Assembly (NCBI RefSeq): GCF_044704955.1
Contig: NC_091980.1
Coordinates: forward strand, 129,208,001-129,272,000
Reading direction: 5' to 3'
Length of the DNA stretch: 64,000 bases
DNA from: Pristiophorus japonicus
Taxonomy: Eukaryota
The notes beneath the pieces were generated by a model, which saw only the letters and a program-made list of their open reading frames with translations, had not been told where the DNA came from and searched no databases. How positions within the stretch are numbered: the stretch's first letter is position 1; each line of letters opens with the position of its first letter. Made by a program: the position numbers and the translations under genes. Below, piece after piece: positions 8,320-59,479 of this stretch.

Positions 8320-10874
8320 TCACTCTCCCAAGGTGTGCTTGTCAAACAGGTACTCTCCCAGACCATTCTCAGGGGCTCCCAGTCTCTTCAGGTTGGTGAT
8401 GTGATCTCCAAGCTTCTTGATCATCTTCACTTGTTCATCCAAGTAGTGGGTCTTCAGGAAGTCACACAACTGAAGGAGAAGAGGGAAATGAGTTATGGCC
8501 AGTAGCAGATATCAAGGAACATTGGAGGTTACCCCTGAAGAGTTTGGATTTTAATCCTTTTGAACTGGGAGGATAGTTAAGTGGTGCAATTGAAATTGAT
8601 GAAAACTTGCTGTACAAGAGGTGCTGGGATCACAGGGACACATTTACAATATCTACCCCAAAAAAGACAACAGAGATCTTTTTAAATTAGATTCAAGGAC
8701 AGCAAGGTTCCACCACCTCCAACTTAGTCAAATGCCCACATTAAAGCATTAGGAACTTACATGAGGATCTGTCCTCTCAGAGGAGAGTTTGTGCAGATCC
8801 AGCAGACTCTGGTTCACATTCTTCTCCATCTGCAGAGCTCTCTGCATCACCTCCAGACCATTGCTCCACTCATCCTGCTCTGGTTTCTGAAGAGGAAATT
8901 CTCATGTTCACTTACAATGTATTGAAGGAATTAGGGCTGAAAAAAAAATTTAATCAGAATTCTAGGATACCATGAATCAGTGTGTTGAATAGAGAATTAC
9001 TGCATTAAGCCATCAACCACTGGAGTCAAATTGATCAGGTGAATAGCACAGATGTATTTAAGGGGGAGCTTAATAAGTACATGTGGGAAAAAGGAATAAA
9101 AGGATATGTTGCAAGATAAAGCAAGGTGAGAGATGTTGTCTGGAGCCTGATCACCAGCATAGACCAGTTTGTCCAAATGGCTGGTTTCTGTGCTATAAAT
9201 TGGAACCAACCGCTTTAGAGAATGTATTGGGAACAATCAGTCTCAGGGGATCCAGACAGAAGGCCCCTCTCGTTTATTGAGCCAAACCTTGATGTCCGCC
9301 AAGATAATCCGGCCCCCACGTCGATTCTGAAATTCCATCAGTTTCTCAGCATGCTCTCGTTCCTCATGTGACTGCTCTTTGAAGAACTCAGCAAAGTGAC
9401 GCAGGGCAACATCATCCCGGTCAAAGTAGAAGGACTGCAGAGAGATCAGAAGAGTAGTTTATTGCAAGGAAGACCAATTATCATGGGCATTGTACATAAA
9501 GCCAAGCTCATTGCTCTTGCTTTCAAGGGCTCAGCCTCATTGAACTTGTATGTAGTTATGGAAACTAGCCCATACACAACTAACCTGGTAAAGATAATGG
9601 ATAATCTCACCTCCAGCAAAAAGGGAAACTTAGTGATTTGCAAGGCAATGGGAACAGAGTGGACGAGTTGTATCGCTCCACCAAACAGTCAGCGACAGAC
9701 AATGGACTGAATGGCCTCCTCTGTTGCATCATTTCATGATCACCAATTCAAATTTGATAAGATTAATGTTCTAATTTACCACTCAAAATTAGTGAAGGAA
9801 CCCTAACAAGATTAATATCCTGGTTACCATTAGCACACTCTAATAATCATTGTTTATTGACACAGATCTAGTGTGTTCAGGCCAGTTGAAGGGCAGTATT
9901 GGAACACCGAGCAACCCCATTAAAGTAGAGATCTAGCCACAGTGCAGAATTCATAATCATACAAAAGAGGAGAAAAACAAAATGAGTTTTACTAGCTCCA
10001 GTCATGCCAAAGAATTAAACTACCACAAGCAGCATGAATTTAGCACCATCAAAACTTTTGAGAACCAGGTGCTATGGAATAAAAGTTATGAAAACCCCTC
10101 AATGTGAGGTGATTGGTGAAGTTCACAGGGGTTAAGGGAGAGGCCACTGAGTACAGACAATTGATGAAGCCTTTACCACCAATAAAGCAAAGACAGAGAG
10201 GAAAGACAGAAAGGAAACAAATGGGTATTTAAGATTAAGAGTTTAAAAACAACAGGAGGGAAGCAAGCATTTGTAACACTTTCTTCCCATCCTCCCCCTG
10301 TGGAGGTGAGGGATGGCTGGGAAAGAAAGCGTTTCAGATTTCCACCACACTGGTGGGAAAGAATACTTCCTGACTTCCCTCCTAAATGGCTGAGCTGTTT
10401 ATGACATCACCCATTGAACCAGCAATGTAAGGAAAGTCCATGGAGTGAGTTAGAATGAGGAAACAAATTCTGAATTCCTCACATTGAGTGCAGAATGCAT
10501 TCAAGATAAACTTCAAGCTCAAGAGCCCAGGAAAGAATCATCAAGATTCAATATCAGAGTATGGTACAGCTACTGCAAGGAACAGAGGCAGTTTGTTAAT
10601 GAGTACACAGGAAGATAAATTATTTCGCATTATAGCTTTAAAAGTGAGTTCACTGCATAGATTGGGCTGGGGGGCAACAGAGAGAAATAGATGGGCAGGG
10701 TACAGCACGGGATTTCATAAATTCACATTACATAGTCCCCATTGTGAAGTGGCAAAAAAACACAAAACTCACCATAGAGAGATAAACGTAGGAGGAATAT
10801 AGCTCCATGTTGATCTGCTTGTTGACAGCATCCTCACAATCCTGGTGGTAGTTCTGACGCACTTGAGAAGCCAT
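8320..10874 (-). CDS. fth1: Ferritin heavy/middle-type subunit, copy A; intact 4-exon gene, 174 aa
   Basis: Exons 10874-10773, 9434-9288, 8886-8761, 8469-8320 (102/147/126/150 nt), all GT-AG, phase 0. Protein [180 protein letters not shown] at 8212-8207. Symbol denotes family; exact orthology not established. Confidence 0.93.
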
Positions 10875-11110
10875 TTTAGTGGTGTTTATTTTTCTGAAGT
10901 ATAAACTTTGTAGAAGTACCAAGATAACATTTAACCAACCTCAAACTCCTGTATTAATACTGAGCGATAATCCAGGGTGTGGCAGTCCTCAATATCCAAT
11001 CAGAAGTTGCAGCCTCTCAGAGCACCAATCAATTAAAGGGAGGAGGTGGATGCACTCCCAGAGCCAGTCAGATCTTTGAAAAGTGAGAATCATTGGCTGA
11101 CAACTCAATG
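10875..11110 (-). promoter_or_regulatory. Promoter and 5' UTR of ferritin A (TATA-like TATTAATA, three CCAAT boxes, no IRE)
   Basis: Mirror of 24750-24983. TATTAATA at ~10952-10959; CCAAT motifs at ~10996, ~11025 and ~11092. Confidence 0.6.
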
Positions 11111-58100: not shown

Positions 58101-59479
58101 CCATAACCCTTGATCCCTTTAGCAATAAAGGCCATATCTAACTCCCTCTTGAATATATCCAATGAACTGGCAACAACTACTCTCTGCAGCAGGGAATGCC
58201 ACAGGTTAACTACTGAGTGAAGAAATTGCTCCTCATCTCAGTCCTAAATGATTTACCTTTGATCCTTAGACTATGTCCCCTGGTTCTGGACTTACCAACA
58301 TCAAGAACATTCTTCCTGCATCTAACCTATCCCATCAAAATTTTATATGTTTCTACACAATCCCCTCATCCTTCTAAACTCCAGTGAATACAGGCCCAGT
58401 CAATCCAGTCTCTCATATGTCAGTCCTGCCATCCCAGGAATCAGTCTGGTGAACCTTCACTGAACTCCCTCAACAGCAAGAAAATCTTTCCTCAGATTAA
58501 AGAGACCAAAACTGAACACAATATTCCAGGTGAGGCCTCACCAAGGCCCTGTACAACTGCGGTAAAACCTCCTTGCTCCTTTACTCAAATCCCCTAGCTA
58601 TGAAGGCAAACATACCATTTGTCTTCTTCAGCACCTGCTATACCTGCATGCCAACTTTCAATGACTGATGTACCATGTCACCCAGGGCTCATTTTATCTC
58701 TCCATCTCTCCTTTTCCTAATCTACCACCATTCAGATAATATTCTACCTTCATGTTTTTCCCACCAAAATGAATAACCTCATTATACTGCAGCTGCCCTG
58801 CATTTGTCCACTCATGTAACCTGTCCAAATCACCCTGCAGCCTCTTAACACCCTCCTCACAGCTCAGACCACCATCCAGCTTATCATCTGCAAACTTAGA
58901 TATTACACTCAAATCCCTCATCCAAATCATTAATGTATATTATAAATAAAATAAAATAAAAAAAAGATCTCAGCACAGTGAGCAAGGCTCCAACACCAGG
59001 ATTCACAGTACTTCACCTCTAATTAATGAGAATGCTAGTAAGGACCTGCCCACATTTCACTCACTACAGTCCCCCCACTGAAACTGAACATTATCTCAGG
59101 TCAACTGGCCCCTGACCAGGTTTGTGCTCTTCTGTTATACACTCAGACAGCAGCTGAGCTAATTTCAGATATTAAACCTCAAAAAAGGACAGCTGCTATA
59201 GGGAGGACTCCATTAACTCAACAAGATCCCCTTGTATTACACACCTGAAGTCCTCACTGCCCAAAGACTCTGCTCCCCCAGGGAAGTAATTCCAGAGAAA
59301 TACAGCTTAAAGCCAATTCATGGAATTGGAGAATTTCCAACTTTTCAGAATGCAACAACAAGGAATACAAGACTCACCATGGAGAGGTAAACATAGGAGG
59401 AACAGAGCTCCATGTTGATCTGCTTGTTGACAGCAGCCTCACAATCCTGGTGGTAGTTCTGACACACTTGGGAGGCCAT
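55189..59479 (-). CDS. fth1: Ferritin heavy/middle-type subunit, copy F; intact 4-exon gene, 176 aa
   Basis: Exons 59479-59378, 56926-56780, 55815-55690, 55344-55189 (102/147/126/156 nt), all [38 protein letters not shown]...[57 protein letters not shown] 55062-55057. Confidence 0.93.
55932..56663. mobile_element. MITE-like insertion in intron 2 of ferritin F
   Basis: Imperfect terminal inverted repeats CCCAGAAATTC / GAATTTCAGGC; absent from intron 2 of copy E. Confidence 0.55.
57991..58945 (-). mobile_element. 5'-truncated CR1 LINE in intron 1 of ferritin F
   Basis: [35 protein letters not shown] tail. Absent from the homologous intron of D and E. Confidence 0.88.

Follow-up and report, generated by a model that had tools for sequence, protein, structure and literature searches.

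The window analysed here, a 64,000-nucleotide (nt) stretch of the shark Pristiophorus japonicus (NCBI RefSeq assembly GCF_044704955.1, contig NC_091980.1, positions 129,208,001 to 129,272,000 of the forward strand), contains a cluster of ferritin genes that records local duplication, purifying selection and repeated pseudogenisation. The intact copies keep the catalytic residues of ferritin, and the copies that retain a promoter lack an iron-responsive element (IRE) and have promoter motifs in common. Taken as a whole, and with somewhat more confidence than doubt, we believe that the cluster is best explained as part of an FTH1b array that turns over by birth and death and supplies ferritin to oocytes independently of iron.

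A cluster of six ferritin loci

We scanned all six frames for ferritin motifs and then mapped the exons of one intact copy, C, over the window. The interval 8320-59479 contains six loci in both orientations, of which A, C and F are intact and B, D and E dead (Table 1). The exons match at E-values between 1e-17 and 1e-74, a 30-nt remnant of exon 1 of E (3e-5) being the exception, so a chance origin is excluded. In A, C and F, four exons of 102, 147, 126 and 150-156 nt are separated by three introns with GT-AG at all three junctions of each copy, the layout described for vertebrate cytosolic ferritin (PMC4117605), and AATAAA lies 108-127 nt downstream of the stop codon (108 nt in A). The polyadenylation signal and the next 40 nt, with a CCAAT/ATTGG near-palindrome and a GT-rich tract (for example 27638-27680), are kept in all six copies, dead ones included; the remaining 3' untranslated region (UTR), unlike this block, has diverged among them.

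The original prediction described six four-exon loci in both orientations within about 51 kb. The number of loci and their orientations stand, but B has only exons 3 and 4. The split into three intact and three disabled copies is borne out by the exon mapping and the lesions, the copies are indeed segmental duplicates that keep their introns, which rules out a retrocopy origin, and the proposed birth-and-death turnover is supported. Among the 31 open reading frames of at least 130 amino acids (aa) in the window, no other host gene was recognised. A search for sequencing runs listed neither an RNA run nor a run of this organism. Contigs from two other runs, which shared 0.06 and 0.05 of the words of the query and aligned to 24500-37900 at 82%, were considered as evidence for expression of A, C and F and rejected. 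Their exon junctions fall where predicted (27095 joined to 37592, GT..AG, and 33304 to 36817), but the contigs combine different copies and differ in sequence from them, and therefore come from related ferritins of other organisms.

Table 1. Ferritin copies, promoters, duplication arms and inserted elements. Motif positions are relative to the ATG.
Feature	Coordinates	Strand	Details
Copy A, intact, 174 aa	10874-8320	-	exons 10874-10773, 9434-9288, 8886-8761, 8469-8320
A promoter and short leader	10875-11134	-	TATA-like TATTAA -85; CCAAT -222/-155/-126; TAATTG -161; TGATTG -157/-128; no IRE
Copy B, partial exon 3 duplicate, 109 nt	14510-14618	+	exon mapping
Copy B, 5'-truncated stump	15038-15665	+	exon 3 15038-15163; exon 4 15504-15665 with +1 frameshift
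Copy C, intact, 174 aa	24984-27534	+	exons 24984-25085, 26422-26568, 26970-27095, 27385-27534
C promoter and short leader	24724-24983	+	motifs as in A; no IRE
Left arm of 4.85-kb inverted duplication, holds A	6787-11628		blastn 98.8% to 24225-29070
Right arm of inverted duplication, holds C	24225-29070		blastn 98.8% to left arm
Pseudogene D	33205-37744	+	four lesions
D promoter and leader (D/E/F type)	32945-33204	+	TATAAA -76; three CCAAT; TAATTG; two TGATTG; no IRE
5'-truncated non-LTR retrotransposon, D intron 1	33959-36073	+	13-nt flanking direct repeat (target-site duplication)
Pseudogene E	51548-45715	-	exon 1 split; AT for GT at intron-1 donor; codon-165 stop; E54K
E promoter and leader	51549-51748	-	TATAAA -89; three CCAAT; TAATTG; two TGATTG; no IRE
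3318-nt insertion in E exon 1	48166-51483	-	ends in retrotransposon 3' tail related to 61900-63500 element
Copy F, intact, 176 aa	59479-55189	-	exons 59479-59378, 56926-56780, 55815-55690, 55344-55189
F promoter and short leader	59480-59739	-	TATAAA -89; five CCAAT; two TAATTG; two TGATTG; no IRE

The original prediction cautioned that ferritin expansions in fishes might already be in print, and for sharks they are. According to Yang et al. (2026, PNAS; PMC13214024), shark genomes generally have more FTH1b copies, and the species studied there has 59 in two tandem clusters, five of them with exons 3 and 4 only. In the Greenland shark, Sahm et al. (2024, bioRxiv 10.1101/2024.09.09.611499) report 155 FTL and 179 FTH1 hits, about 80% of which are in three clusters syntenic with the white shark. 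Our cluster resembles the FTH1b clusters in its shark host, its tandem intron-containing genes and its exon-3/4-only copy (B, 1/6 here against 5/59), and it resembles the Greenland and white shark clusters as part of a large clustered family in sharks; more than 85% of the copies counted by Sahm et al. are full length, whereas three of six are dead here. We are fairly confident that the window belongs to the tandem ferritin array of sharks that PMC13214024 calls FTH1b. The amphibian Fth cluster (PMC13003380) and the hadal snailfish fthl27 array (PMC10746142) are also made of tandem intron-containing paralogs with lineage-specific gains and transposon insertions in introns, but they belong to other lineages, and the snailfish copies are highly expressed in most tissues.

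Leaders without an iron-responsive element

A 5' IRE is normal in vertebrate ferritin mRNAs. With start sites placed from the position of the TATA box, none of the five promoter-bearing copies has an IRE of this type, in contrast to salmon, where all five H and M isoforms carry one (PMC4117605). At the gathering score, Rfam gave no matches in the window, and at E-values up to 10 it gave nine weak unrelated matches window-wide, none of them to an IRE family; 500-nt scans over the starts of C and F likewise found no IRE family. A script built on canonical and variant IRE loops found no IRE-like hairpin within 1200 nt of any of the five ATGs (imperfect ones occur at -1208, -1523 and -1621) and, over both strands of the whole window, no perfect stem that bears a canonical loop. 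When folded, all four leaders tested were no more stable than their shuffles (z -0.56 to 1.67).

Two ways in which an IRE could have been overlooked were considered and rejected. A decayed IRE in the leader of A and C, faint by eye, is unsupported by Rfam or folding. A hidden upstream exon carrying the IRE is contradicted by the lack of a canonical IRE in the window and of a strong acceptor before the ATGs, where the best candidate has 8-10 pyrimidines in 15 and overlaps the TATA box, compared with 10-15 in the real acceptors.

We found no report of IRE loss or of promoters in shark ferritin arrays, in a search whose scope excluded subscription journals, figures and bioRxiv supplements. The words IRE, iron-responsive, UTR, oocyte and ovary do not occur in the main text of PMC13214024, and the parts of that paper that were searched do not mention IREs, UTRs, oocytes or pseudogenes. 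The main text of the newt paper (PMC13003380) has no occurrence of IRE or iron, no relevant passage was found in PMC11719527, PMC5568229 or PMC13193013, and ferritin does not occur in the searched text of bioRxiv 10.1101/2025.02.19.638963.

Promoter motifs common to five copies

A TATA box lies 76-89 nt upstream of each ATG, in a block conserved over the five copies, and the leaders are therefore expected to be about 50-60 nt long. The 260-nt promoters have 3-5 CCAAT boxes each, against a window mean of 0.86, with three or more in 15 of 246 bins. TAATTG, two TGATTG and three CCAAT occur together in 44 of 3187 sliding 260-nt bins, and these merge to five places, which are the five ferritin promoters. 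TGATTG is an LHX8 element and TAATTG a NOBOX element, both being oocyte factors (PMC4282238). Judging from these motifs, the upstream blocks are putative promoters. Their observed/expected (o/e) CpG ratio is 0.16-0.27, compared with 0.34 window-wide. At E 1e-3, blastn finds no similarity between the A/C-type and the F-type promoters, and the likeness of the E promoter to that of F ends at about -200, at an inserted repeat tail.

In C (24928-24972, plus strand) and A, a frame of 14 codons begins at an out-of-frame ATG (-56) and ends about 11 nt short of the ferritin ATG. The upstream ATG is close to the probable start site and may be too near the cap for use. F has no such ATG.

A proposed supply of ferritin to oocytes

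Local segmental duplication takes the promoter, introns and polyadenylation signal into each new copy, most recently in the inverted event that produced A and C. Purifying selection maintains the working copies. The others have been lost through an altered splice site, stops, frameshifts, the insertion of a retrotransposon or truncation at the 5' end. A, C and F encode signal-peptide-free subunits, predicted to be ferroxidase-competent, from IRE-free genes. We propose that their short leaders escape translational repression by IRP1 and IRP2, so that output would be set by transcription and copy number. Several CCAAT boxes together with NOBOX- and LHX8-type sites could drive transcription in growing oocytes, and the ferritin may stock large yolky eggs, both as an iron store for the embryo and as a shield of the lipid-rich ooplasm from iron-driven oxidation. 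We lean, by a little, towards this oocyte-supply mechanism being correct.

Outside support for an oocyte role is indirect. The largest Greenland shark ferritin cluster is ovary-specific in expression (Sahm et al. 2024), which fits the promoter motifs here, in coho salmon a ferritin predominates among the transcripts of a subtracted library from early oocytes (PMC2262088), and ferritin tags are abundant in zebrafish follicles (PMC1488847). The yolk ferritin of the snails Lymnaea and Biomphalaria (PMC10799875) is IRE-free and would be a functional analogue of the proposed egg provisioning. That protein is secreted from the digestive gland, where it is made, and has both a signal peptide and an insertion of 42 aa, whereas both features are absent from the 174-176 aa chains here, and the ferritin we propose would be made in the cell that uses it.

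Several points weigh against the oocyte reading. For A, C and F, expression in oocytes and the position of the start site are predictions from sequence, and some FTH1b copies are transcribed in fin and blood (PMC13214024). The motif combination was picked after viewing these promoters and is thus post hoc, the five promoters are homologous and not independent, and, as TGATTG shares letters with the CCAAT box in reverse, binding by the ubiquitous NF-Y accounts for much of the motif signal. A canonical cytoplasmic polyadenylation element precedes the polyadenylation signal in none of the six copies. The IRE scans had no positive control within the window, the family placement is based on taxon, anatomy and literature and not on a tree, and the window holds no flanking single-copy gene for synteny.

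The same array might instead have a somatic purpose, with extra dosage buffering labile iron and limiting lipid peroxidation and ferroptosis in body tissues. PMC13214024, which frames the expansion as one of ferroptosis and longevity, proposes this, and the fin and blood transcripts suit it, as does the finding that overexpression of snailfish fthl27 lowered reactive oxygen species in 293T cells (PMC10746142). The intact ferroxidase ligands are in keeping with protection, too. Promoters with CCAAT and TATA boxes can respond to stress. However, the largest shark cluster is ovary-specific, PMC13214024 sampled fin and blood only and has no occurrence of ovary or oocyte in its main text, high copy numbers are also found there in sharks that are not long-lived, and the promoters here are CpG-poor. 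We consider a somatic purpose unlikely.

Selection and turnover of the copies

C and F differ by 24 synonymous and 11 non-synonymous changes over 173 codons, which gives a dN/dS of 0.10 (binomial p ~1e-9), compared with ~0.06-0.12 in salmon (PMC4117605). The original prediction had named a dN/dS near 1 across copies as the sign of neutral duplication, and the value found is far from it. A and C differ from F at 32-35 coding positions, and dS is 0.09-0.39 in the other copy pairs. Site patterns assign 10 synonymous and 4 non-synonymous changes to the A/C stem (dN/dS ~0.1, p 5e-5), 6 and 2 to the F branch (dN/dS ~0.1, p 1e-3), 16 and 16 plus a stop to E (dN/dS 0.27), and 1 and 5 plus a stop to D. 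Because of these counts we conclude that both intact lineages, A/C and F, have been constrained since their split; E was under constraint through most of its existence, and D seems to be free of it. Gene conversion homogenising the exons of C and F was also considered and rejected, as their synonymous divergence (0.23) is not below their intron divergence (0.16-0.20).

Purifying selection alone does not show selection for dosage. Copy number could be a by-product of a repeat-rich, unstable locus, in which one or a few copies are needed and kept while the rest come and go without dosage selection. Half of the loci are dead, self-matches extend over 64% of the window (ferritin duplicates included), A and C are separated by 2 synonymous and 3 non-synonymous changes, a number too small to show constraint, and several tandem newt Fth copies are nearly silent in liver (PMC13003380), all of which would be expected of neutral turnover. 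In contrast, the A/C stem and the F branch each kept a low dN/dS after their split, even E stands at 0.27, and large clusters are syntenic across sharks separated by ~250 million years (Sahm et al. 2024), and we regard such turnover as a quite improbable explanation of the whole.

Encoded proteins and ferritin class

The copies are predicted to be ferritins from motifs, exon structure and residue positions, the numbering being that of PMC4117605. E24, Y31, E58, E59, H62, E104 and Q138 are kept in all three intact copies, which agrees with the original prediction (E27, Y34, E61, E62, H65, E107 and Q141 in the human H chain), and all the ferroxidase-centre ligands (E24, E58, E59, H62, E104 and Q138) are accordingly present. 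Atlantic salmon H1, H2 and M1-M3 are alike in these residues and in their four exons and three introns (PMC4117605). E54 and E61, given in the same paper as nucleation residues of M and L chains, are also found in all three, as in the salmon M chains. Residue 57 is His in the copies here. A His at this position is an H-chain feature. The chains of A, C and F have no N-terminal extension and start directly with the ferritin N-terminus. The motif that had been predicted as NG(L/M)GEYLFDKH has a single form in the three intact copies, and its M variant is confined to pseudogene E.

Cys at residue 6 is common to D, E and F (33205-33222, 51548-51531 and 59479-59462), where A and C have Arg, and Cys at residue 26 is common to E and F. 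In intact F these extra cysteines could have a redox effect or be mildly harmful changes.

The only tree built was of the five local copies, and the H, M or L identity is based on residues and literature. The likeness to M-type chains claimed in the original prediction holds for E54, E61 and the length of 174-176 aa, but an M-type class is not established, and the published shark tandem family is placed in FTH1b, a paralog of the heavy chain. These same residues and the length would suit copies of the M/L lineage, the shark counterpart of the amphibian tandem cluster, which has four genes over ~50 kb in Xenopus and seven in newt (PMC13003380), and many of the copies in Sahm et al. (2024) are labelled FTL. 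On the other side are the His at residue 57, the tree in PMC13214024, which splits FTH1a, FTL and FTH1b and places the shark tandem clusters in FTH1b, and the salmon M chains, which retain the IRE (PMC4117605). We believe that membership of the M/L lineage is improbable, and we keep to FTH1b.

The inverted duplication of A and C

One recent inverted duplication has A in one arm and C in the other, and the three intact copies therefore represent two lineages. The arms differ by 38 substitutions (21 transitions and 17 transversions), and A and C differ at 5 of 525 coding positions. False assembly duplications are usually direct or at contig ends. That A and C are a single gene assembled twice from two haplotypes, which would leave two intact and three dead loci, is very improbable, given that the arms, although 98.8% identical over 4.85 kb with evenly spread differences, a level possible for allelic variation, are inverted, 12.6 kb apart, in unrelated flanks and with B in between.

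Tandem arrays of a 33-nt repeat are found at 5061-5291 (6.9 copies) and 12163-12293 (3.9 copies), both inside a direct repeat of 530 nt (4663-5191 and 11769-12292, 91.5%), the two units of which flank copy A. A 1.1-kb direct duplication (21283-22458 and 22674-23763, 83%) that is not ferritin-related lies in the spacer that separates A from C.

Dead copies and retrotransposons

A low-stringency search of 11629-14510 with C and F as queries found no exon 1, exon 2 or promoter of B, only two chance matches of 12 and 17 nt (E 0.17-0.25). Compared with C or with D, the partial exon 3 of B has a single difference in 109 positions, but it has 4 in 109 against the full exon 3 of B itself, although its upstream intron resembles that of B; a small conversion event or chance are possible explanations.

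Four lesions are found in D: the acceptor of intron 1 is not AG, 3 nt are missing at E58/E59, codon 73 is a stop, and exon 3 is shifted in frame by +2. It still has four exons and high identity. The element in its first intron, putatively of L1/Tx1 type, has matches to Pfam RVT_1 (E 4e-6) and zf-RVT (E 1e-5) that fall slightly short of the curated cut-offs. Both repeat insertions in E (48166 and ~51750) end in the same pyrimidine-rich tail, at a similar short target in exon 1 and in the promoter, which suggests that they were guided by microhomology.

A reverse transcriptase frame at 62265-63512 (415 aa) was compared with named entries among its best 120 matches. Its identity is 52-78% to ray and shark proteins, most at 69% or more, 40-54% to bird and turtle proteins, and 54-56% to two bacterial-labelled matches on contigs of less than 2 kb. 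Among the named matches listed it is thus most identical to elasmobranch proteins, which, by an indirect route, makes a shark or ray host very probable and supports the cartilaginous-fish setting of the original prediction. Broken, decayed pol frames resembling those of LTR retrotransposons, presumably of Ty3/gypsy type, occur at 1797-3653, 12173-12646 and 39637-44051; Pfam RVT_1 matches 42753-43343 (E 3e-12), and no family was found for 2536-3135. Retrotransposons explain much of the copy spacing and some of the damage.

Significance

This cluster is a further instance of a published feature, as the expansion of such arrays is already known. What did not turn up in the literature searched is the lack of an IRE in the five promoter-bearing copies, together with their oocyte-type promoter motifs. 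The two papers on shark arrays hint at different roles for them, ovary expression in one and ferroptosis and longevity in the other, and neither treats leaders or promoters in the text searched. The missing IRE and the oocyte-type motifs favour the reproductive reading, which is directly testable. Copy counts based on protein similarity include dead genes; D, for example, would pass as full length.

More tentatively, and with rather more doubt than belief, we suggest that these arrays could be a dedicated vertebrate class of maternal ferritin, a heavy-chain paralog that lost its IRE, came under NOBOX, LHX8 and NF-Y and was amplified for dosage, as multigene families specific to oocytes have been, so that very large yolky eggs could be loaded with iron. 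If this is true, the expansion would follow egg provisioning and not longevity, and IRP-independent ferritin synthesis in oocytes would be an ancient vertebrate arrangement that may reach to the tandem ferritins of teleosts and amphibians.

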